A DNA stretch of 16,550 bases from a virus. The notes under the pieces are model-generated. The model did not search any database, had not been told where the DNA came from, and saw nothing but the letters and a program-made list of their open reading frames with translations. Positions 2,404-16,550 of the stretch are shown one piece after another; position 1 is the stretch's first letter, and the number at the start of each line of letters is the position of its first letter. Made by a program: the position numbers and the translations under genes. The DNA lies in the UHGV virus genome UHGV-0152507; one strand, 5' to 3'.

Positions 2404-2487
2404 AGCAAGCGACATTAGACGCTCACCACCAATGAGGCTTGCTAGTGCTAAAGATGCCTCAGCAAGCCTCAACGAAGGAGTCTATCA

Positions 2488-2949
2488 ATGAAAGAAATCC
2501 GAGAAAACGAATTAAATGCGAGATCTCAGTATTTACGTCAGTTTCCGTTAGATGGTGCTCGCGTCGCACGAATCTGCAAGATGACAGAAGCGCAAGCAAA
2601 CGCTATTCGCGATATGAACACCGACGAACTGCAAAAGCAGGTTTTCGTTACACCTGTTGAATTTGCATATCTGACGGGCCGGACTCTTAAGTCAGTACGT
2701 AACTTAATGGATCGTGCTCAGTTACCGGTCCACCGCGAAGGGATGCCGGGTTCCAAACGTCCTAAGCGTTTCATCATGCTGCAAGAGTATTGGGACGCCG
2801 TAGCACACTGCCGCGCACTAATTACCCCAGAAGAAAAGCACTACATCGATCGTCTGATGCGCGACAAGAAAACATATCGCCGCGTAACTGGTAACAATCA
2901 TCAGACGCATACGCGCACAAGCCGCAATTCAGCAAGGGCTGTCGCATGA
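2488..2949 (+). CDS. cox: Cox-like excisionase/early regulator with N- and C-terminal extensions
   Basis: Internal segment PVEFAYLTGRTLKSVRNLMDRAQLPV aligns with P2 Cox (EFAKLIGKSTGAVRRMIDKGKLPV as recalled). First gene of the rightward operon; strong SD GAAGGAG 7 nt before ATG 2488. At 153 aa it is longer than P2 Cox (91 aa); a later start at the in-frame ATG near 2581 is possible. Confidence 0.7.
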   Translation: MKEIRENELNARSQYLRQFPLDGARVARICKMTEAQANAIRDMNTDELQKQVFVTPVEFAYLTGRTLKSVRNLMDRAQLPVHREGMPGSKRPKRFIMLQEYWDAVAHCRALITPEEKHYIDRLMRDKKTYRRVTGNNHQTHTRTSRNSARAVA

Positions 2950-3404
2950 AAAACAGCAAATCAGTAAACGAACTTATTTCCGCTGTGAATGAGTTTTTGC
3001 GTAACAGCAACCCAGAGCGCTTGATCGATAATGGCATTCACGAAGCCTTATGCAACCTCGTTGATGCCGTAAGCCAGCAACAAGAAGAAATCGACTCCCT
3101 GCTGGAACGGCTGAATGCGCATAGCCCCGTTAATAGCGCGATAAAGGAAGAATCCGGTACTGTATTTCGCCGCCGCTATTACCGCAATGGTGTTCACGCG
3201 GGAAATGTTTATTTCCGAATTGAAGCGTTTGAAGGGATTAAAAGTTGGGCAGAAGAACTAAGGGCTGATTTTGAATCTTGTCTTAACGATTTTATTTCAC
3301 GACTTCACCCTGAACACCGTGCTTGCTTCGTTTCTACAGTAATAAGTCGCGCCCACAGTTTGACGTCGGAAGAGAAAGCGGAGTGGGAGCGACTTCAGAA
3401 GTAA
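2946..3404 (+). CDS. Hypothetical early protein carrying a portal-like FRRRYY-NG-HAG motif
   Basis: 152-aa ORF; ATG overlaps the cox stop (ATGA at 2946..2949). Contains TVFRRRYYRNGVHAGNVYF, which matches TIFRRRYYNNGAHMGFILY in this prophage's portal and the corresponding P2 Q segment as recalled. Confidence 0.7.
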   Translation: MKNSKSVNELISAVNEFLRNSNPERLIDNGIHEALCNLVDAVSQQQEEIDSLLERLNAHSPVNSAIKEESGTVFRRRYYRNGVHAGNVYFRIEAFEGIKSWAEELRADFESCLNDFISRLHPEHRACFVSTVISRAHSLTSEEKAEWERLQK

Positions 3405-3410
3405 AAATGA

Positions 3411-3641
3411 TTATTTATTTGCCGTCGCATTTGCAGGGCTAAATTGCATCAGCTCCTTATAGAGTTTCTGCATATGCGGATTGTCCATTTCTTTCAGTGA
3501 CTTCATAACCCTTAAAGCGTGCTCATGTGACTGAGAGAAAATGGATAGGGCTAGGGCCATTTTTAATGCACTGATTTCGCCGTTGATGTCATTGAGATCA
3601 GTTTCAAAAGTGACGTTATTGACTTGATAACTATTGCTCAT
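3411..3641 (-). CDS. Hypothetical small protein (76 aa), antisense to the early operon; moron-like
   Basis: Good SD (AAGGA, 6-nt spacer) before ATG at 3641. Visibly AT-richer than its neighbours. Sits between plus-strand genes, with a 136-bp non-coding stretch on its 5' side (3642..3777). Confidence 0.6.
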   Translation of the reverse strand: MSNSYQVNNVTFETDLNDINGEISALKMALALSIFSQSHEHALRVMKSLKEMDNPHMQKLYKELMQFSPANATANK

Positions 3642-4474: not shown

Positions 4475-5479
4475 ATGATTCGATCTCTCGTTAAATGGCC
4501 CGGTGGTAAAGGCCGCGTTATGCCTGATTTGCTGCCGATTCTGCCGAAAGCCGATTGCCTGGTGGAACCGTTTGTCGGCGGAGCTTCTGTTTTCCTCAAT
4601 ACTGAATATCGCCGTTATATCCTGGGTGATATCAACCCAGATTTAATTAACCTGTATCGCCAGATAACCCGCTGGCCTGATGCGGTGATCGACGCTGCTC
4701 GCCCGCTGTTTAAAGTGTACGGTGATAAAGACGGCTATAAGTGGATCCGCGACGATTTCAACGCCCGCGCCCATGACCTTCTGTCATCGCGCAATGTGTT
4801 TGAGGACGGACCGGACGCGGGCAAGATTCTTCGTGCAGCACAGTTTCTTTACCTGAACCGTCACGGATATAACGGCGTAGTGCGCTACAACCAACAGGGC
4901 GGATATAACGTTCCCTTTGGTAGACACAAAACCCCGCCTTACTTCCCGGAAGAACAGATCCGTTTATTCTCTGAAAAAGCTAACGACACGAAAGCTATTT
5001 TCGTGTGCTGCGATTTCCAGAGCACGTTAAAAATCATGATTGGTAGTGACGCGGTTATCTACTGCGATCCGCCATACCTGCCAGCAAGCGACACCGCTAA
5101 TTTCACCCAATACCACACCGCCCCGTTTGGCATTAAAGAGCATCGCCAGTTAGCTGCCGCCCTGCTGGATATTAACCGCCTTACTGGTTCGCCGGTGATC
5201 CTGTCCAATAGCGACACCCCATCTACCCGCGAGATTTATCGCGCTTTCAACTTCCAGGAAATCAGCGTTAACCGTTCTGTCAGCGCGAACGCCATTACCA
5301 GAGGGGCCGCCAGTGAAGTGATCGGCGTGCTGCCTGTCTGTGATGGCTGCGGGCGCTATGAAGGTGGTCACTGTGCGAAATGTTGCCCAGGTATCGCCGC
5401 ATGTGAGGAGGGATGGTCGTTTGATTGTCGAGGCAACTGCGATATTTGCGAGCCGTCCGATAACCCGGAAACGTGGTAA
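4475..5479 (+). CDS. dam: DNA adenine methyltransferase (Dam family) with a C-terminal Cys-rich extension
   Basis: AdoMet-binding motif EPFVGGASVF near the N-terminus and catalytic DPPY (CDPPYLP), with Dam-like sequence throughout. SD GGAGAAAG. The last ~50 codons (5330..5479) encode ten cysteines that are not part of a typical Dam. Confidence 0.9.
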   Translation: MIRSLVKWPGGKGRVMPDLLPILPKADCLVEPFVGGASVFLNTEYRRYILGDINPDLINLYRQITRWPDAVIDAARPLFKVYGDKDGYKWIRDDFNARAHDLLSSRNVFEDGPDAGKILRAAQFLYLNRHGYNGVVRYNQQGGYNVPFGRHKTPPYFPEEQIRLFSEKANDTKAIFVCCDFQSTLKIMIGSDAVIYCDPPYLPASDTANFTQYHTAPFGIKEHRQLAAALLDINRLTGSPVILSNSDTPSTREIYRAFNFQEISVNRSVSANAITRGAASEVIGVLPVCDGCGRYEGGHCAKCCPGIAACEEGWSFDCRGNCDICEPSDNPETW

Positions 5480-5495
5480 TAGCGAGGGATCTGCA

Positions 5496-6125
5496 ATGAG
5501 AAAAACACACGAATTAAAGATTTGGCCGGAGTTTTTTCAACCTGTTATGGACCGCGTGAAATACGCTGAATTGCGCCTAAATGATCGCGACTATAGCGCG
5601 GGCGACGTTTTGTTTTTGCGGGAGTTTTTACCCGCTAGCGGCAAATATTCGGGCAGCTATAACGTAGTAATAATATCTCATGTCGCTGATGTATCGGCGT
5701 TTATGCCGGGGTACGTCCTGCTTAGTTTCACTTCTTTCGTTACGCGCGGCGCTAACTGGCCTTTCCATAAGCCAACTACAGTGGAGGCTGCTGTAACTGC
5801 GGAAGATACTGGTTTTCTTTCGGCGCTTGTCGCCTGCGAGCCTCCCTGTAGCGTGATTCACCAAATGGCACGCCGACTGCTTGATGAACATCCATCGCTT
5901 CCAGTGTCCGAAAAATCTGATCTGTTGCCATGCCCCTTTTGCGGTGAAGCGGCTTTCTTTGACTCTATTTTTGATTACCAGTCAGAAACGCGTGTTTATG
6001 CCCCGTCTTGTACGGAGTGCTCATGCGAATTGATGGACGGCCCGATCATTAACAAATATGGGCGCGGTTGGTATGCCTCAAAGCAGGATGCCGCCGAAGC
6101 CTGGAATAAAAGGCGCTCGCAATGA
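5496..6125 (+). CDS. Two-domain protein: N-terminal DUF3850-like (ASCH/PUA-like) domain fused to a C-terminal Lar-family restriction-alleviation-like domain
   Basis: N-terminus MRKTHELKIWPEFFQPVMDRVKYAELRLNDRDYSAGDVLFLREF matches the DUF3850 hallmark as recalled. C-terminus LPCPFCGEAAFFD...SCTECSC...AAEAWNKRR matches the Lar-family pattern (CPFCG ... C-x2-C ... AWNRR). SD GAGGGA before ATG 5496. Stop overlaps the next start (ATGA at 6122..6125). Confidence 0.8.
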   Translation: MRKTHELKIWPEFFQPVMDRVKYAELRLNDRDYSAGDVLFLREFLPASGKYSGSYNVVIISHVADVSAFMPGYVLLSFTSFVTRGANWPFHKPTTVEAAVTAEDTGFLSALVACEPPCSVIHQMARRLLDEHPSLPVSEKSDLLPCPFCGEAAFFDSIFDYQSETRVYAPSCTECSCELMDGPIINKYGRGWYASKQDAAEAWNKRRSQ

Positions 6126-7126
6126 CTGCCTATTACAACGAAATCGATCCATATGCAGCACAGTGGCTGCGCAACCTCATTGATGCCGGGCATATTGCGC
6201 CAGGCATTGTTGATACCCGTTCAATTGAGGATGTAACCCCCAATGACCTTAAAGGCTTTACTCAATGTCACTTCTTTGCCGGGATCGGTGTGTGGTCATA
6301 TGCCCTGCGTCTTGTGGGCTGGCCGGACGACAAACCGATCTGGACTGGATCCTGCCCATGCCAGCCTTTCAGCCCGGCAGGCAAAGCAACTGGGTTTGAT
6401 GACGAGCGGCACTTATGGCCCGCCTTTCATTGGCTCATTGCTCAGTGCCGCCCTGTCGTTGTCGCTGGCGAGCAATCTGGAAGCGCTAACGCGAACGTCT
6501 GGCTCGACCTTGTACAAACTGACATGGAAAGCCTGGGCTATGCCTTCGGGGCGGTCGCGTTTCCGTCTGCGAGCGTCGGTGCGCCACACATCTGGGACAG
6601 AGCTTACTGGGTGGCCGACACCAACGGCGAGCGCATGGAAACACCCTGGAAACCAGGGGAGGCAGGGAGGCTTGAATTTGCAAACGGCCACAGCATTAGC
6701 TGGGTGGCCGACACCAACAACGCAGAGCAACAACCAAATCTCAGGAGTTGGAGCTGCTGCAGATCACCCGAAGCGCGGGACAACTTTGGGCGGGGCTGCT
6801 CAGCTGTCGGGGTGGCCGACACCAGCTTCAAGGGACGGCAAGGGGGGGTATCAGGGCGGGAGGATACGCAACGGGAAGCTGTCGACGGACACGCTGGATG
6901 TGACGGCGCAAATTGCGGGACCGGTCCGGTTAACGGTTTCTGGCGATCTGCTGACTGGCTGTATTGCCGGGATGGAAACTGGAGGCCAGTTAAACCCGGA
7001 CTTAAGCCGCTGGTTGATGGGGTTACCGGACGAGTGGGAAAAATCCGCGCCTACGGAAACGCTATCAACGTTGAAGCTGCAACAGCGTTCATAAAGGCTT
7101 ATATGATGGGGGCGTCAAATGTCTGA
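6122..7126 (+). CDS. Dcm-like DNA cytosine-5 methyltransferase, apparently frame-disrupted or frame-variable
   Basis: Annotated frame has FFAGIGVW (motif I-like), catalytic PCQ at 6356..6364, RPVVVAGEQ (motif VI-like), LESLGY, GAPHIWDRAYWVA (motif VIII-like) and YGNAINVEAATAFI (motif X, 7052..7093). The motif IX-like LNPDLSRWLMGLPDEW is only in the overlapping +1 frame (6990..7037). Confidence 0.7.
   Translation: MTAYYNEIDPYAAQWLRNLIDAGHIAPGIVDTRSIEDVTPNDLKGFTQCHFFAGIGVWSYALRLVGWPDDKPIWTGSCPCQPFSPAGKATGFDDERHLWPAFHWLIAQCRPVVVAGEQSGSANANVWLDLVQTDMESLGYAFGAVAFPSASVGAPHIWDRAYWVADTNGERMETPWKPGEAGRLEFANGHSISWVADTNNAEQQPNLRSWSCCRSPEARDNFGRGCSAVGVADTSFKGRQGGVSGREDTQREAVDGHAGCDGANCGTGPVNGFWRSADWLYCRDGNWRPVKPGLKPLVDGVTGRVGKIRAYGNAINVEAATAFIKAYMMGASNV
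6607..6826. repeat. Three copies of a 19-nt element inside the methyltransferase gene
   Basis: CTGGGTGGCCGACACCAAC at 6607..6625 and 6700..6718; CGGGGTGGCCGACACCAGC at 6808..6826. They encode GWPTP in the +1 frame and (W/G)VADT in the annotated frame. Confidence 0.7.
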
Positions 7127-9737
7127 CGCCGCCTTTGCATGGCCCTGGAACGCGCCGCGCCCAGCTGTTGGCCTGTACACCTACGAACCGAAAAAAATCG
7201 CCCCGCTTGCCGGGGCGGTGGCGCATCATCCTGCCGTAAAAAAACACATCGATCACATATTCAAACGCGCCGGTTACAACCCTGACGACGTTCGCGACCG
7301 TGACGCGCTGATCCAGACGCTGGACAGGTACGAACCGTGCGGCCTGCCACTGGCCGCCCAACAAAATATCATCCGGCAGGAAAGTGCAGCCGCGAAAGCT
7401 GCGGCGGCCGCCTGGGCCAATACGCCGGAAGGTGTCGAAGCGCGTTTGTTGTCTGAGCCGTTCTTCATCCGCGAAGTCTGGCGCAAAAAAATTGAATGGT
7501 TACGGGCCAACCGTGAAACCAGACACACCAATGATTTTCTTATGGGGACCGTGAAAAAATCATTGCTGCGTCTTGATGTTGTGCGCACAAGGCAAGGTGT
7601 TTCGCCTGATATCACCGGCGAACTGGCCGCGTACTGGTTCGGGCGCTGGCAACGGCTGGCTGATTTCACAAAGCGGGAAGCCCTAAGCGCCGCTAATGAG
7701 ATCGCCAGCCGCATGGCTGAAATGCTGGGGACGGAATGCGAAGCCTTGGGACGAAATGTTTCAGACATGAACGTCGAAGAACTGGACTGGCTTTATTGCC
7801 ACCTGGGCCGTGAAATGCTGGCGCTTCGCATTGTGCCGCCTGCATGGTATGCGCCGTGGGAACGCGAGCGCATATGCACGGCCATTTTGCGTATGGCTTC
7901 GCCTGACTGGTGGGGGCGCAAAATCTGGCGCTTGCGTTGTGACTGGCGCGAAAACCAGCTGCGTGCTGTTGGCGCGGTAAATAAAAAAGCGCATCCGTAT
8001 ATCAGTGCATCAAGCCTGATGGAATGGCAGGAACAGCGACGTAAAAACCGTAATTTCTTCAAAAGTCATGAACTGGTAGACGAAGACGGCAACGTTTCGT
8101 CGCTTGAGGACATGATTAACAAATCCACGTCTAACCCTGCAATTCGTCGTCATGAGCTTATGGCCCGTATGGCTGGCGTGGAGCTTGTCGCCCAGAGTCG
8201 TGGCGATGTTGGCATCTTCCTGACCATCACTTGCCCGTCGAAATATCACGGCAATATTGCGTCCGGCCACCATAACGCAAAATGGAACTACGACACGGTT
8301 GCACAGGCGCAACGCTATTTATGCCGCGTATGGAACCGGGCAACCGCCAAACTGAAACGCGAAGATTTGCGCCCTTACGGCTTCCGCGTCGCCGAGCCGC
8401 ATCACGACGGAACGCCACACTGGCACGCCCTGCTATTTATGCCGCAGGCAGAAGTTAAAGCCACGGTAGCGATTTTGCGTGATTACTTTGTCAAAGAGGA
8501 CCGCGCCGAACTGGGGCGTAATACCGGTGCTCGCTTCAAGTCCAAAAAAATGGACCCACGGAAAGGGTCAGCAACGGCGTATATCGCGAAATACATTTCG
8601 AAGAATATCGACGGCCATGCGCTGGCCGGTGAACTGGACGACGAAAGCGGCAAGCCGCTGAATGAAACAGCCAAATATGCAATGGCCTGGGCATCACTTC
8701 ACCGCATCCGTCAGTTTCAGCCCATCGGACAGCCGCCCATATCGGTTTACCGCGAGCTGCGCAAACTGAGCAATCAGATCACGACGCGCCAGAAAATTGA
8801 CAATACCTTCAAGCGCGGTGCGCCGTTGCTTGTGGATCCTGCTATGGATGCGGTTTGCGCCGCTGCGGATGTCGGGTGCTTTGCTACCTACATCATCCGC
8901 CAGGGTGGTGTTTTGATCCCGCGAGAAAACTATGTCGTCCGTCTGGCCTATCAGCCAGCTGATGAAATGAATGCTTATTGTGAGATCCCCGAAAAGGTAT
9001 TCGGGGTCTGGTCGCCACGTCTGGGGGATGCCTCCCGCATTTGCACCCGTCTGGTTAAGTGGAAAATCCGCGCCAAATCCAAAGCCACCACCGGGGCCAA
9101 AAACGGCCCCGGTTTGGGGGTTGACCTTTTGCCGTCGCCAACCGGCGACGCTTGGAGTTCTGTCAATAACTCTACGGAAGACGAAAAAATCACCGATTTT
9201 TCGCCTGATGTGGAAGGGGTGACAGGAGGAGCAGAAGGGGAAATCGGCGATGTTGAAAACATGGACCAACCGACACGGCGAAAATTGATGCGGCGACTAC
9301 GTGAAACACCATTCAAAAGGCAGCAAAACGGATCACCTTATGAGCCAGGCAGCGAATTAGATGTCGCCTGGCGTTCTGCCGTGGAAAAAACCGAGGCCAG
9401 ATCGGCGGCAGAAAAGGCCAAACGGGCGGCGCTTGCCCCTGCTGTTGCCAGCCTGCTGGCAGATGCGGCGTTGTATTCGGTTGAGATTTCAGAGATTCAG
9501 GCCGTTTCGCTGTTAATGGGGAGTTGTCTGGAGATTGGCGGCAAAGTTTATCGGGCCAGTGCTGACGGCCAGTTGATAACGCGTCAATTACCCGACGAGT
9601 CACGGACGGTGAATAAATTATGGGAACGTCTGCGGGATAACCACGGCATAGATGCCACGCGCCTGCGGTTCGACCCTGCGGGCGAATACGCAAAGATGTT
9701 AACGAAAGCAATTAATTGCGCTGACAAAAAGGGGTGA
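7119..9737 (+). CDS. A: Rolling-circle replication initiator endonuclease, P2 gene A-like
   Basis: 872 aa. HUH-type motif GTPHWHALLF and paired-tyrosine motif YIAKYISKN (compare phiX174 gpA YVAKYVNK). N-terminal AWPWNAPRPAVG resembles P2 A. Position after the early accessory genes is as in P2. Confidence 0.9.
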   Translation: MSDAAFAWPWNAPRPAVGLYTYEPKKIAPLAGAVAHHPAVKKHIDHIFKRAGYNPDDVRDRDALIQTLDRYEPCGLPLAAQQNIIRQESAAAKAAAAAWANTPEGVEARLLSEPFFIREVWRKKIEWLRANRETRHTNDFLMGTVKKSLLRLDVVRTRQGVSPDITGELAAYWFGRWQRLADFTKREALSAANEIASRMAEMLGTECEALGRNVSDMNVEELDWLYCHLGREMLALRIVPPAWYAPWERERICTAILRMASPDWWGRKIWRLRCDWRENQLRAVGAVNKKAHPYISASSLMEWQEQRRKNRNFFKSHELVDEDGNVSSLEDMINKSTSNPAIRRHELMARMAGVELVAQSRGDVGIFLTITCPSKYHGNIASGHHNAKWNYDTVAQAQRYLCRVWNRATAKLKREDLRPYGFRVAEPHHDGTPHWHALLFMPQAEVKATVAILRDYFVKEDRAELGRNTGARFKSKKMDPRKGSATAYIAKYISKNIDGHALAGELDDESGKPLNETAKYAMAWASLHRIRQFQPIGQPPISVYRELRKLSNQITTRQKIDNTFKRGAPLLVDPAMDAVCAAADVGCFATYIIRQGGVLIPRENYVVRLAYQPADEMNAYCEIPEKVFGVWSPRLGDASRICTRLVKWKIRAKSKATTGAKNGPGLGVDLLPSPTGDAWSSVNNSTEDEKITDFSPDVEGVTGGAEGEIGDVENMDQPTRRKLMRRLRETPFKRQQNGSPYEPGSELDVAWRSAVEKTEARSAAEKAKRAALAPAVASLLADAALYSVEISEIQAVSLLMGSCLEIGGKVYRASADGQLITRQLPDESRTVNKLWERLRDNHGIDATRLRFDPAGEYAKMLTKAINCADKKG

Positions 9738-9739
9738 GC

Positions 9740-9955
9740 ATGAAAATTATTATTGGGCATAAGAAGCAAAATAATCAGTTAGATGTAGTTGTAAGTGCCT
9801 GGTGTTGGGAAGTGGAGCAACTCAATAAGCTGACAAAAGAAGTGATCCGGGTGTTTTTTGTGGAAGGTGAAGCAACGTGCGTGCCGTCGTCATTTCTTCT
9901 GCGTCGTAAATACAAGGTAAGCGGGCCGGAGAGTTCTAAATCTTCCACCAGATAA
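9740..9955 (+). CDS. Hypothetical small protein (71 aa) immediately after A, at the P2 orf91 position
   Basis: ATG 9740 sits 3 nt after the A stop, with AAGGGG upstream. AT-rich. No motif recognised. Confidence 0.45.
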   Translation: MKIIIGHKKQNNQLDVVVSAWCWEVEQLNKLTKEVIRVFFVEGEATCVPSSFLLRRKYKVSGPESSKSSTR

Positions 9956-10066
9956 AACAGTCAATCGCGAAAACCTGCGTTACTTGTTGCGCGGGTTTTC
10001 ACGATTCTGCGGGTGCGGGCGGCAAAGAGTCCGCATGTTTTGATTCTAAAAGTGAGATAAGAAAAA

Positions 10067-10282
10067 ATGAAAGCGAGTTATATCAGTTACTTTGAAGGTT
10101 ACGATGCTCTTGGCCGAATGATTTTTAATGGCAATGGTTCATGTTCGGTTGAATACGACGAGACTGAGGGAATCGATCCTGAAGGGTTGCAGGTCGCGCA
10201 TTGTGAGCATCTTTTAAAGGTGGCCCAGGCCAAAAATAACAGTGTCGTGAGAGTCACGATTAATAACATGATGAAACTGTAA
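10067..10282 (+). CDS. Hypothetical small acidic protein (71 aa), cargo at the P2 tin/old position
   Basis: Stand-alone ORF in an AT-rich stretch, followed by a stem-loop terminator. Weak SD. No motif recognised. Confidence 0.5.
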   Translation: MKASYISYFEGYDALGRMIFNGNGSCSVEYDETEGIDPEGLQVAHCEHLLKVAQAKNNSVVRVTINNMMKL

Positions 10283-10309
10283 TTGTTATCAATTCCAATA
10301 GTTAAAAAT

Positions 10310-10326
10310 GCCCGCTTTATGCGGGC
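10310..10326. terminator. Bidirectional rho-independent terminator between convergent genes
   Basis: Stem GCCCGC / GCGGGC with a 5-nt loop. Followed on the plus strand by TTCGTTTAT and on the minus strand by ATTTTTA. Lies 5 nt beyond the minus-strand zinc-finger gene stop. Confidence 0.55.
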
Positions 10327-10331
10327 TTCGT

Positions 10332-10658
10332 TTATGCCGTCTGACCGTTGAGCAGGTCCAGCGCGAATTGACGTTCTTCGGGCTTGAGCCGGTCAATCAG
10401 AAATTTAACCAGCTTGTTGCCGGTCAGCCCGCTGGGGCTGAGGGTATGTGAAAACTCAACGCTATAAACAAATGTATGACCACATTCCACTTCCGTGCAG
10501 CCACAGTATAAAGACGCCAGTTTTTTATCTTTCCAGTCAGATTTACGAATGATGGCCGGTGAGCCGCATTCAGGACATTTAATTTTAAAAACTCGCATGT
10601 TCACCATCCCGCACGCCATTGCTAACAATGGGGATGATTTTAACTTAACTGCGCTCAT
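10332..10658 (-). CDS. Ogr/Delta-family zinc-finger protein (putative late-gene transcription activator)
   Basis: CPEC ... CGCTEVECGHTF matches the Ogr pattern CPLC ... CQNVNCSATF, with similar spacing. ATG at 10658 overlaps the portal stop (ATGA). An alternative start at ATG 10598 (MRVFKIKCPEC) would give an Ogr-sized N-terminus. Confidence 0.7.
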   Translation of the reverse strand: MSAVKLKSSPLLAMACGMVNMRVFKIKCPECGSPAIIRKSDWKDKKLASLYCGCTEVECGHTFVYSVEFSHTLSPSGLTGNKLVKFLIDRLKPEERQFALDLLNGQTA

Positions 10659-11716
10659 TTTTCGCCCTTTTCGACGGTGATTGCCGGGATATCTACATCA
10701 AAATGCAGGTGCAAATGTGGGGGGATCTCCGGGTCATTGTTGACGCCGTTCATTAGCTTGCGCTGCAACGGGATAACTTCATCCTTGCGATAGGTTGTGC
10801 GGGCGGTTTCAGGGTTGCCCATTACCGCGCCATTGGTCGGGATGATACCGGCCAGCCCTGCGGGGAAACGGTGAGCGGTAAAGATATCCTGCGCGGTGAT
10901 CCCTTTGATGTTGGCAAATTCATCCTTTGCGCTGACTTCGCCCACTGGCATGATTTTAACCCCTTCCGGGTCGCCCTTCGGGATGTTGATAAACATATTG
11001 CGGAAGTTACCCAGCCCTTTGGACTGGGCGATCTTCTCTTTGATTTCGTTTTCCATTTCCAGCGTCAGATTCGGATCGCTGGTATAGAGAATAAAGCCCA
11101 TATGCGCCCCGTTATTGTAGTAACGGCGCCGGAAGATGGTTGCCTCACTGTTGAGTAACACCGAATGGATGCCGCCGATATAGTCAGGCAGGCCATATAC
11201 CTGCTGGCGCGGGTCGTACATTTTAAAGAAAACGATGTCTTCCGGGTCATAGATAAGCGCTGGCCCTTCCTGCAAAACAGCAAACGAGCCGTCTTTCCGG
11301 CAGCGCAGGTACAGCGACGGCAGCGGCAGCAGGTCGATCACTTCCCCGAATACGTTACGAATTTTCAGGATAGCGACGTCACCAAACAGCAGGTAATCAA
11401 AGACAGCCTGTTCGACCTGGTCAGGCGTCAGGCCGCCGCCAATATAGCCACCGGCCACCATATTGCGCCGCGCATACAGCACCCCACCATGCTGGCCGTT
11501 AAGGTTCGGCAACTGGGCCAGCGCCAGGCGATCAATCGGGAGTCGCCAGTGGTCATATTCATTGTCATACCAGATATTGTGATAATCCGTGCCGGTCGTC
11601 AGGATGGGTTCGGGTTCGCCAAATGTGATCACGCTTCCGCGCCCTGGCGTGAAGGTTTCAACCTTGCTGCCGGTCATGGACCTGAATTTTTTATTATTAC
11701 GCTGTTTCTTTGTCAT
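10655..11716 (-). CDS. Q: Portal protein, P2 Q-like
   Basis: 353 aa. Segments LPDYIGGIHSVLLNSEATIFRRRYYNNGAHMGFILY and KGLGNFRNMFINIP resemble P2 Q (LPEYLSALNSAWLNESATLFRRKYYENGAHAGYIMY, KGRGNFKNLFLYAP as recalled). Confidence 0.9.
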   Translation of the reverse strand: MTKKQRNNKKFRSMTGSKVETFTPGRGSVITFGEPEPILTTGTDYHNIWYDNEYDHWRLPIDRLALAQLPNLNGQHGGVLYARRNMVAGGYIGGGLTPDQVEQAVFDYLLFGDVAILKIRNVFGEVIDLLPLPSLYLRCRKDGSFAVLQEGPALIYDPEDIVFFKMYDPRQQVYGLPDYIGGIHSVLLNSEATIFRRRYYNNGAHMGFILYTSDPNLTLEMENEIKEKIAQSKGLGNFRNMFINIPKGDPEGVKIMPVGEVSAKDEFANIKGITAQDIFTAHRFPAGLAGIIPTNGAVMGNPETARTTYRKDEVIPLQRKLMNGVNNDPEIPPHLHLHFDVDIPAITVEKGEK

Positions 11717-13524
11717 GCTGCTTTCCCAAAGTACCAGCCCGATGGGCGGTCATATTCGTGATCGATAGGTTCGTTAATTACGGCGTGCGAGATAGCGAAG
11801 AAAACATCTGCATGGCCGGTCGCGTCTGAACGTTCAGCAACAAACGTCAGCGCGTTGCCGCTGTTGGTTGTCGTGCGCCGGATAGCCATAAAGCTGGCCG
11901 GAATTTCGACGCGCTCTTTGTTCGTTTCGTCTACGGCGTCTTTTGCCCATTCGATGCGCTTACGCTCGACAACGTCGATCATCTTCATTACCAGACGGTT
12001 TTTGCTTTCGACGCTGTAAAGAATCGGTGTGGCTTCGCGTGGTGCAAACTTGCTGACCAGGTCATAAACGCCCTTACCTATGCCGGTTGTATCGATCCCG
12101 ATGTAAGTGATGTTAAAGCGGCGCATAAGTTGCTTTATCTGGTCGGCCTGCCAGCTGAAGTTAAAGCCCTGCCATTGCCAGACGGCCAGCACGCGGAAGC
12201 GCTCGCCGTCCTCTATGGGGGGCGCGATTAACACAAAAGTGGAGTTGTCGCCGGATCGTGACGGGTCAAAGCCTGCCCATACTTCGCGATTGCCGAAGGG
12301 CCGCGCAGCAGTCAGATCAAAGTCGCCCCATGTGGCCCGGTCCACTTCGCAACCGACAAGCGCGGAGAACTTGAACACCGCGTCCTTGCTGTCAACAAAC
12401 TGGCACATGTAGAGCATGGCAAACGCGGTCGGGCTGTATTTGTTGCGCAGTCGTTCAATATCGACAAGCGCCCCGAGGCCGCCTTCGATGGCGTCTTCCA
12501 TTGTGATGATATAGCGCCAGATCTGGTCCGGGCAGAGAATGCCCTGGCGCATTTCGCTTTCTTTCGGGAACGTCACACCTTTGCGTTTCGGGTCGTCCCC
12601 GCGCCAGGCTTCGCCAGTCCAGACCGGGTAAGCCTGGTGCGTTTTCGCGCTGGGCGTCGAAAAGTAGGTCGTGCGGTATTTGTTGTGCGTCGCCATTGCG
12701 CTGGCAACTTCGTGCAGGCGCGTGAATTTCGGGATCCAGAAAACCTCATCACCATACAGGTGGCCGTTAAAGCCCTGCGCGGTGCTGGCGTTCGTGGACA
12801 AAAAGCGCAGTATTGCGCCGTTGCTGAGGCGGATATTTTTACCCGTCAGCGTCACGCCGAAATGGTTCTGAGCGATCTGGACGATGTATTCACGGAAGAT
12901 TTCAGACTGGGAGCGGCTTGCAGAGAAAAAGACCTGGTTATCACCGGTAATGACAGCATCTTCGAATGCCTCCCAGGCGAAATAATAGGTCATGCCGACC
13001 TGTCGGCTTTTCAGAATGAAGCGCCAGTCTTCGCCTTTATGTTCGCGGCAGTGCAGCTGGTACTCGAAGAGATGTTCCCGCGCCCAGGTGTCGAGCATTT
13101 CCGCTGTAATACCGGAAACGTCGTTTTTCTTATACCGGCGCTTTCTTTCCCCTGGTTCCCCGCCTGCGCTGCTGAGGCAGTACCCTTCACCATCATAAGC
13201 CGCTTTCTGGGCCTGAATTTCTGCCAGCTTTTCGGCGTGCTTGTTGCGCTGCGCCATGAGTTTCACATGGTGAGCAATCAGATCGCGCAGTTCCTCCAGT
13301 TCCAGCGCTGTTTTTTTCTCGCGGCGGGAGAGCTGGTCGATACGGCGGGCGATGACATTTTCCACCGATTCAACAGGCAGCAGTGATGCCCACTTCCCGA
13401 CGTCAGCCCAGTGGTAAATTGTACGCGGTGGAATATTCAGTTCCTGCGCAATATCTTTCGGCGTCCAGCTTTTTATATAAAGCGTGCGGGCCGCTTCTTT
13501 TAATTCATCGGAATATTTAGCCAT
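11713..13524 (-). CDS. P: Terminase large (ATPase) subunit, P2 P-like
   Basis: 603 aa, upstream of and overlapping Q (ATGA), as in the P2 Q-P operon. N-terminal HTH-like region and terminase ATPase-like body. Call rests mainly on size and conserved gene order. Confidence 0.85.
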   Translation of the reverse strand: MAKYSDELKEAARTLYIKSWTPKDIAQELNIPPRTIYHWADVGKWASLLPVESVENVIARRIDQLSRREKKTALELEELRDLIAHHVKLMAQRNKHAEKLAEIQAQKAAYDGEGYCLSSAGGEPGERKRRYKKNDVSGITAEMLDTWAREHLFEYQLHCREHKGEDWRFILKSRQVGMTYYFAWEAFEDAVITGDNQVFFSASRSQSEIFREYIVQIAQNHFGVTLTGKNIRLSNGAILRFLSTNASTAQGFNGHLYGDEVFWIPKFTRLHEVASAMATHNKYRTTYFSTPSAKTHQAYPVWTGEAWRGDDPKRKGVTFPKESEMRQGILCPDQIWRYIITMEDAIEGGLGALVDIERLRNKYSPTAFAMLYMCQFVDSKDAVFKFSALVGCEVDRATWGDFDLTAARPFGNREVWAGFDPSRSGDNSTFVLIAPPIEDGERFRVLAVWQWQGFNFSWQADQIKQLMRRFNITYIGIDTTGIGKGVYDLVSKFAPREATPILYSVESKNRLVMKMIDVVERKRIEWAKDAVDETNKERVEIPASFMAIRRTTTNSGNALTFVAERSDATGHADVFFAISHAVINEPIDHEYDRPSGWYFGKAA

Positions 13525-16500: not shown

Positions 16501-16550
16501 AGACTCCCGCTAGCCGGGACGGGCGCGGGGGAGGCATCAACCATACGGTT

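Follow-up and report, generated by a model that had tools for sequence, protein, structure and literature searches.

What is carried in the variable interval between the replication gene gpA and the portal gene gpQ of a P2-like phage when only very small genes are found there? The question is raised by the viral genome UHGV-0152507, a stretch of 16,550 nucleotides (hereafter, the window), in which the 594-nt segment that follows gpA (positions 9738–10331) holds two short open reading frames, ORF1 and ORF2, each coding for 71 residues. The gpA–gpQ interval is a diversity and defence hotspot of P2-like phages; it has never been found empty, and in about 19% of P2-like elements only unknown genes are present at the main defence loci (PMC9122126; PMC13586616). 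An original prediction, made from the sequence, saw in the segment the counterpart of the tin/old slot of P2, reduced to two small AT-rich ORFs, and suggested that ORF2 could be a minimal exclusion or anti-defence factor or the remnant of a deleted system. We identify the window as the left portion of an integrated P2-family prophage belonging to the type of Salmonella phages SI7 and SW5 (Irrigatiovirus), and find that ORF2 alone occupies an exchangeable slot with precise borders, and that this is a recurring state of the slot and unlikely to be a deletion remnant. The closest named relatives are the Salmonella phages SI7, SW3 and SW5 (Peduoviridae, Irrigatiovirus), and the same type of prophage is found in 19 of 5,426 complete Escherichia coli genomes. 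The features of the segment and of its two flanks are the following:

7119–9737, + strand: gpA replication endonuclease, 872 aa (PF05840, E value 1.4e-105), left flank
9740–9955, + strand: ORF1, 71 aa, basic (isoelectric point, pI, 9.6), coupled to gpA
9963–10006, + strand: RNA hairpin of 20 bp, at the 3′-end of the early operon
10008–10034, + strand: core, TGCGGGKGCGGGCGGCAAAGAGYCCGC, 27 nt, left border of the exchangeable slot
10067–10282, + strand: ORF2, 71-aa cytoplasmic protein, mildly acidic (pI 5.1, net charge −3), sole cargo of the slot
10310–10326, both strands: bidirectional intrinsic terminator, a perfect 6-bp GC hairpin flanked by an A-run and a T-run
10332–10658, − strand: ogr/Delta-type zinc-finger late activator (PF04606, E value 3.5e-16; phrog_603, E value 8e-42)

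In this arrangement, the segment comprises the 3′-end of the early (replication) operon followed by the cargo slot between gpA and the portal gene. The operon ends in gpA and the coupled small basic gene ORF1, and then runs into a structured RNA element; the core forms the left recombination border of the slot, the bidirectional terminator next to ogr its right border, and the about 270 nt between them are a cassette with one gene, ORF2. We hold this anatomy with high confidence.

Much of what had been predicted for the segment was borne out. Both ORFs are present, and the ATG of ORF1 lies 2 nt past the gpA stop codon, with AAGGGG ahead of it. The segment is AT-richer than its flanks (43.3% GC, as compared to 55.3% for gpA and 52.4% for the window), and only 3.7% of equal-sized stretches have a GC content as low. 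The terminator at its end scores on both strands and is common to ORF2 and to the ogr-Q-P operon; next to the ogr stop codon it is kept in nearly all relatives, with compensatory changes in the stem. Other parts had to be redrawn. The GC-rich hairpin placed between the ORFs, at about 9967–9996, exists but is larger, with 20 bp at 9963–10006; beyond it, at 10015–10041, lies another GC hairpin, this one with a U-run. Moreover, the segment does not adjoin Q, as had been supposed, since the ogr/Delta gene lies between the terminator and Q. This gene scores 59.3 bits against PF04606 (Pfam cut-off, 26.3), is labelled ogr/Delta-like by RefSeq in the E. coli relatives, some of which have a shorter form of 91 aa, and overlaps the portal gene at its 3′-end, which places the activator within the gpA–gpQ interval. 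It is the true right flank of the slot; in P2, ogr is located elsewhere in the genome.

The borders of the slot emerged when 32 related loci, drawn from GenBank phages, E. coli genomes, Logan/NCBI contigs and IMG/VR, were compared with the window (loci are designated L followed by a number). Identity among the relatives extends to the final base of the core and no further, with divergence by cargo type from there on, and the sequences become similar again at the terminator hairpin that adjoins the ogr stop codon; therefore, the exchangeable cassette extends from about 10035 to 10309 and contains ORF2 only. The idea of a two-ORF cargo slot thus holds for ORF2, but not for ORF1, which lies upstream of the conserved border element and is linked to the 3′-end of gpA. 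Between these borders, at least seven states of the cargo occur; the cargoes seen in the slot, or following the core, are:

ORF2 alone: L007–9, L024 and L033 (ORF2 protein 65–89% identical)
a 65–66-aa ORF1-like gene alone
an ORF1-like gene and a 230/239-aa Dam-like methylase: SW5 and others
a Dam-like methylase alone
a 925-aa protein: L002, 1962–4739 (E. coli 2011C-4251 and 18 other complete E. coli genomes)
an unannotated gene pair of 94 and 139 aa: L025, 8190–8903 (reverse-complemented coordinates)
after the core, a Phd/YefM-Doc(Fic) toxin–antitoxin pair: L022, 8101–8765, in a different late-gene lineage
after the core, a DUF4760 gene: L029, 1359–1865, − strand

The claim that the interval is a variable hotspot is therefore in line both with the literature (PMC9122126; PMC13586616) and with the differing cargo of the relatives. 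Comparing the interval from A to Q across related prophages, as had been suggested, showed ORF2 alone more than once, the other relatives holding a methylase, an ORF1-like gene, Phd-Doc or the 925-aa protein. The last, which in E. coli is encoded by DNA of 32% GC and has a hydrophobic N-terminus, had no match in Pfam, PADLOC or NCBIfam, and is a candidate unknown defence gene.

The slot of the window is the smallest among the relatives and is AT-rich, and it might be asked whether the ORFs are decaying, non-functional leftovers of a larger system. Both, however, are full length as compared to all of their homologues, and both are conserved coding genes, as judged from family alignments and from the ratio of non-synonymous to synonymous substitution rates (dN/dS), the coding conservation on which the prediction had been made to depend. 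The dN/dS values, of 0.13–0.42 for ORF1 and 0.07–0.26 for ORF2 against its homologues, are well below 1 and indicate purifying selection, and confident structure models were obtained for the two proteins. The intact ORF2 is bounded within the slot by non-coding spacers of 32 and 49 nt, too small for gene fragments, and the layout with ORF2 alone persists across relatives down to 65% protein identity; together, the recurrence of this layout and the lack of room for fragments argue against a deletion remnant. Empty hotspots, in addition, were never observed in P2-like elements (PMC13586616). We consider it extremely improbable that the ORFs are leftovers of this kind.

ORF1 belongs with the operon upstream. 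Its homologues form six close clusters (68–96% identity), in which the start codon is always found 2 nt after the gpA stop codon (L015–L019). The protein also aligns over its full length, free of gaps, with the 65–66-aa proteins encoded downstream of the core in SW5 and similar phages, the invariant residues of the family being W21, W23, G43, L54, R55 and G62. The family is small and restricted to SI7-like phages. In SW5-type phages, the ORF1-like gene adjoins a methylase of the same Dam-like family as that found beside ORF2 homologues (see below). ORF1 travels with a particular gpA 3′-end and hairpin variant, the last codons of gpA being part of the ORF1-linked module; this type of gpA end and hairpin variant is also present in L015–L018, whose slot carries a methylase. 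No other locus was seen with both ORF1 and ORF2. On the sequence evidence, the window is recombinant, the core being the junction of two modules that are seen apart elsewhere: its gpA 3′-end, ORF1 and hairpin variant match those of E. coli and Salmonella prophages, and its ORF2 cassette is of the kind present in other SI7-like prophages. ORF1 would be an additional small accessory protein, independent of ORF2 and translated together with gpA. Two proposed kinships were rejected. ORF1 is not a homologue of P2 orf91, which is a DUF3850 protein, the DUF3850 of the window being encoded upstream of gpA (5340–6125); and ORF1 and ORF2 are neither distant homologues (hhalign probability of 0.2%) nor a two-gene system, as the genes assort independently. 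The DUF3850 gene of P2 (orf91) is itself placed after gpA, whereas that of the window precedes it.

The module joint lies in the 111-nt spacer between ORF1 and ORF2, an element conserved in all the loci compared; no other non-coding sequence from gpA to ogr is conserved. The sequence of its hairpin varies while the pairing is kept: compensatory changes were found at 11 of the 20 pairs, and 93% of the cells in the alignment are paired, a degree of covariation that none of 500 shuffles reached (slid controls gave 34–45%); the fold has a z-score of −4.0. Among the wobble cells, 50 are G·U on the + strand and three are A·C. Because wobble pairs are thus almost exclusively those of the sense strand, the structure is selected as RNA in the early-operon transcript. 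The adjoining core, TGCGGGKGCGGGCGGCAAAGAGYCCGC, was invariant in 33 of 33 loci (21 from an exact-pattern scan of IMG/VR and 12 retrieved independently by protein or DNA similarity), including phages with a gpA only 37% and a portal only 31% identical. It holds a hairpin of its own, GCGGGC-N8-GYCCGC (10015–10034), after which the window has a U-run (10036–10041); the stretch 10013–10036, with the GTTTTG that follows, has the score of an intrinsic terminator-like signal, with a GC stem-loop and a U-tract. This U-tract is missing in relatives of the methylase and Phd-Doc types.

A GC hairpin and U-run that end the gpA operon and are under selection at the RNA level recall the intrinsic terminators and 3′-stabilizing hairpins of early operons. 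In contrast to these, the core is invariant in sequence across distant lineages and the U-run is absent before some cargo, and for both reasons termination alone is insufficient to explain it. An Rfam search of the element returned no family, the sole match being a chance microRNA (E value 0.18); the core had no similarity to the nick site of the P2 replication origin, and its complementarity to the rest of the window or to SW5 did not go beyond 9–11-mers. The window's version of the element gave no megablast match in E. coli genomes, and the E. coli variant finds just the same 19 prophages, beneath which RefSeq has no annotation. The hairpin and core were not found described in a limited search of the literature and, to our knowledge, the borders of the slot, especially the covarying hairpin with its invariant core, are undescribed.

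The position of the element invites another explanation. In P2-like phages, the cohesive end site (cos) lies between the last right-end gene and Q (PMC9122126), which matches the location of the hairpin and core between right-end cargo and Q; if these were the cos of the lineage, the virion DNA would have ORF1 at its right end and ORF2 at its left. That nothing else non-coding is conserved from gpA to ogr is in keeping with this view, as is the failure to find a P2-type cos in any part of the window or of the SW5 genome, where the 19-nt GGCGAGGCGGGGAAAGCAC-like cohesive end of P2 found no match outside coding sequence at up to 4–5 mismatches. The GC-rich core further shares TTCTGCG..TGCGGGCG with the sequence just to the left of the L010 cos, and in a manual comparison it agrees with the P2 cohesive end at 11 of 19 positions. 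However, L022, L038, L039 and L029 have the identical core after gpA and, beside Q, a P2-type cos region which, as in L010, consists of TGCACAA repeats and GGTGACGGGGG(G)AA..., next to the portal gene. Since the core coexists with a P2-type cos, it serves, at least in these phages, a function linked with the early-operon end rather than with packaging. The wobble bias, which points to selection of the adjacent hairpin as sense-strand RNA, and the existence of an alternative cos candidate, likewise invariant and GC-rich, in the spacer that follows gene M, also speak against a cos at this site. We have largely rejected this explanation, and rate it as improbable. The ends of IMG/VR contigs fall at neither invariant element and are uninformative as to cos.

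The second element occupies the spacer of about 100 nt, GC-rich and highly conserved, between gene M (terminase small subunit) and the next gene (16501–16550 in the window, where it is cut by the window end; 15229–15330 in L042, SW5). Exact copies of a 25-mer within it, CCGGGACGGGCGCGGGGGAGGCATC, occur in 32 IMG/VR contigs, with a small covarying hairpin (AACC-loop-GGTT) behind them. In its 3′ part, the element is similar to the 3′ half of the 186/P2 cohesive end. It may be the cos of the lineage, or else an RNA element of the late operon.

What, then, is ORF2? The protein is soluble, with neither a membrane segment nor an enzymatic motif, and is acidic, as predicted, only mildly. Among 5.8 billion clustered proteins, 18 homologous clusters were found, with 54–89% identity and all of 71–72 aa, and a profile search of 1.84 billion representatives yielded 34 relatives, nearly all of 66–80 aa; the family is present in two of 185,579 species genomes. 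By these searches, the family of 66–80-aa phage proteins to which ORF2 belongs is rare but widespread. An N-terminal motif, MKxSYISYFEGYD..G..FNGNG, is strongly kept. AlphaFold2 gave confident models, with a predicted local distance difference test (pLDDT) score of 94 for ORF2, folded as a beta-hairpin, helix and strand (beta-beta-alpha-beta), and of 84 for ORF1. Neither protein had a sequence match in Pfam, PHROG, PADLOC, NCBIfam or PDB, and fold searches with the two models returned only generic alpha/beta folds or unnamed phage proteins. Remote homology and structure prediction, which had been proposed for both proteins, thus produced good models, but no known family or informative fold match; nor does any defence or anti-defence family match either protein, as the predicted role might have led one to expect. 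One member of the family, P0031 (L049, 4881–5093; L050, 4843–5055), is encoded in a bacterial chromosome, apparently outside any phage, by a gene located between the flagellar clusters fliE/fliF and fliD/fliS/fliT.

The genomic contexts of the homologues are more telling. In every P2-like context, ORF2 is on the strand of gpA. It follows gpA by 15 nt or overlaps it by 4 nt in L055–66, follows it by 24 nt in L014, and abuts the stop codon of a methylase gene in L010–13. In several P2-like lineages, ORF2 homologues lie beside a short (203–267 aa) Dam-like methylase of the D12 class, in either order:

ORF2 homologue with D12-class methylase: L010, 5313–6216; L044, 5053–6213; L055, 4001–5016; L061, 4001–5015; L053, 605–1534

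Homologues are also present in phages that have no annotated integrase and have their own DNA polymerase and primase, such as AAM22. In at least six groups of phages outside the P2 type, the homologue lies on the same strand directly between the Phage_Mu_F and DUF2213/Pa193_gp24 genes, in a head module with the order portal, Phage_Mu_F, ORF2 homologue, DUF2213/Pa193_gp24 (scaffold-like), decoration protein and major capsid protein, all on one strand:

ORF2 homologues in head modules, six groups: L046; L047/48; L051/52/58; L054; L070; L073

In L070 and L073, no Mu_F gene is found among the gene calls and the homologue lies between the portal and DUF2213 genes. Most SI7-like relatives, including the isolated phages SI7, SW3 and SW5, are without ORF2. 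Because ORF2 is early in one type of phage, late in another and missing from most close relatives, it is an accessory gene and not a core function.

The head modules raise the possibility that ORF2 is a small head- or packaging-associated protein, acting as an assembly accessory or being packaged and injected in the manner of T4 IPI*. The recurrence of the Mu_F/portal and DUF2213 neighbourhood in those six or more groups would fit such a role, as would the homologues of AAM22 and L069, which abut the Mu_F gene in convergent orientation, and in the P2-like phages ORF2 is the gene nearest to the portal operon. There, on the other hand, ORF2 is on the early strand and is parted from ogr-Q-P by the bidirectional terminator, and its absence from SI7, SW3, SW5 and most other SI7-like relatives implies that it is not needed for assembly; the great rarity of the family (34 of 1.84 billion representatives) is a further point against a head role. 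A function of this kind is conceivable, but we think it unlikely.

When is ORF2 made? A scan for promoters of the sigma-70 type upstream of ORF2 detected none. The constant location on the gpA strand throughout the P2-like phages, the coupling to gpA or to a methylase, the lack of a sigma-70 consensus and the presence of homologues in integrase-less phages argue for expression in the lytic cycle rather than in the lysogen. In the window, ORF2 would be made by read-through of the early-operon terminator. This bears on the proposal that the prophage expresses ORF2, or ORF1, as a minimal exclusion or defence factor consisting of one protein. The location in a published defence hotspot (PMC9122126; PMC13586616), the deviant GC content and the terminator downstream are what one would look for in such a gene. 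PADLOC, however, gave no match; the strand is that of the early operon and no consensus promoter precedes the gene; in other lineages the gene is coupled to gpA or a methylase; and homologues occur in head modules and in phages without annotated lysogeny genes. A soluble 71-aa protein, lacking membrane segments and enzymatic motifs, also fits poorly. Given the orientation of ORF2 and its occurrence in apparently non-temperate phages, a lysogen-expressed exclusion gene is disfavoured, and we regard it as distinctly unlikely.

The comparison with known cargo leads in the same direction. The old and tin genes of P2 are on the opposite strand and have their own mapped transcript starts (P2 annotation). 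The slot of the window resembles the P2 old/tin hotspot in its position between the replication gene and the portal gene, in its cassette-like replacement and in its AT-rich cargo. It differs in that one 71-aa gene, oriented like the early operon, takes the place of large, oppositely oriented defence genes with a promoter of their own, that ogr lies between the slot and Q, that no P2-type cos is detectable beside the slot, and that no defence model is matched; the likening of the segment to the tin/old slot, then, holds for position but not for strand or promoter. The comparison with phage morons (units of promoter, gene and terminator) has a similar outcome. ORF2 is like a moron in its presence/absence polymorphism, its lower GC content (42.6%, against 55.3% for gpA) and its own downstream terminator, so that the proposed moron layout stands in these respects, but it has no recognizable promoter, has a terminator-like hairpin ahead of it, and is joined to an early or a head operon in other lineages.

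Lambda Ral, Rac Lar, T7 Ocr and T4 IPI* are small anti-restriction proteins, made early or packaged. ORF2 is, like them, a small soluble phage protein expected to act by binding protein, and is found beside methylase and anti-restriction genes or head genes; in contrast to them, it has no sequence or structural similarity to these proteins, and it is only mildly acidic and not a DNA mimic. Against characterized anti-defence proteins (Ocr, ArdA, Ral, Lar, Acr and others) more generally, no similarity of sequence or fold was found. An anti-restriction link is nevertheless suggested because ORF2 homologues adjoin a D12-class methylase and because the early operon of the window has Dam, a C5 methylase and Lar. 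ORF2 would be a portable small accessory protein of the phage, made in lytic growth, rather than a lysogen-expressed defence gene of the old/tin kind; it most likely acts by binding another protein, and its role would probably be in counter-defence or anti-restriction, or in host modulation, alongside the orphan methylases that share the slot. Our tentative preference, which we put somewhat below an even chance, is thus for a lytic-cycle accessory protein that acts by protein binding, most plausibly in counter-defence or anti-restriction.

Several points weigh against this preference. No known anti-defence, defence or regulatory protein resembles ORF2 in sequence or fold, and the function proposed for ORF2 is based on gene context. 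The adjacency to methylase genes may merely reflect two common cargoes of one slot. The context of portal, Mu_F, DUF2213 and capsid genes implies late expression in those phages, and possibly a head-associated role. Finally, the terminator-like U-tract before ORF2 argues for low expression by read-through, and a weak −10-like box (TCTAAA, TATAAA or TAAAAT) about 20 nt before the start codon, albeit with no −35 element, makes a promoter of its own possible. A bolder proposal joins the two new elements of the locus: ORF2 would found a new family of small effectors, acting in counter-defence with orphan Dam-like methylases or being delivered with the DNA via Mu-F/portal, and the hairpin and core would be a dedicated cis-acting RNA/DNA element that gates early transcription into the hotspot or anchors cassette exchange between P2-like lineages. 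That both parts are right is, in our view, rather doubtful.

The locus is an uncharacterized cargo in a known hotspot, and fits the class of P2-like elements that carry unknown genes. The gpA–gpQ hotspot is a proven source of new anti-phage systems, in which about one-fifth of the elements carry only unknowns, and in the hotspot of P4 six of eight unknown loci that were tested were protective (PMC13586616; PMC9122126). That a hotspot of this kind can be reduced to one 71-aa gene unlike a lysogen-expressed defence gene advises caution against assuming that all slot cargo is defensive. The exact borders, with the 27-nt core to the left and the ogr terminator to the right, can be used to mine the cargo of the lineage and to study cassette swapping, and ORF2 and ORF1 are two concrete and cheap targets for experiments.

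The remainder of the window is organized as follows:

50–820: host ABC-ATPase gene
974–2011, − strand: integrase
2066–2368, − strand: helix-turn-helix repressor-like gene
rightward early operon: Fil-like gene, Dam, DUF3850 + Lar, C5 methylase, gpA
4475–5479, + strand: Dam methylase, early operon
5340–6125, + strand: DUF3850 fused to a Lar restriction-alleviation domain, early operon
6122–7126, + strand: C5 cytosine methylase, early operon
10655–11716, − strand: portal gpQ (PF04860), 98–99% identical to the SW5 and E. coli prophage portals
11713–13524, − strand: terminase gpP, with rightward capsid genes thereafter

The gpA protein is 83–85% identical to those of other SI7-like loci (L021, L034), and its C-terminal 199 aa are 84% identical to SW5 gpA. 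Between 4475 and 7126, the early operon encodes three consecutive restriction-related functions (Dam, DUF3850 + Lar and the C5 methylase). A further accessory region, devoid of family matches, spans 2439–3641, where the early operon runs from its cox-like start to the Fil-like gene; it includes two unannotated ORFs of 152–153 aa (2488–2949 and 2946–3404) and a reverse ORF of 76 aa (3411–3641).

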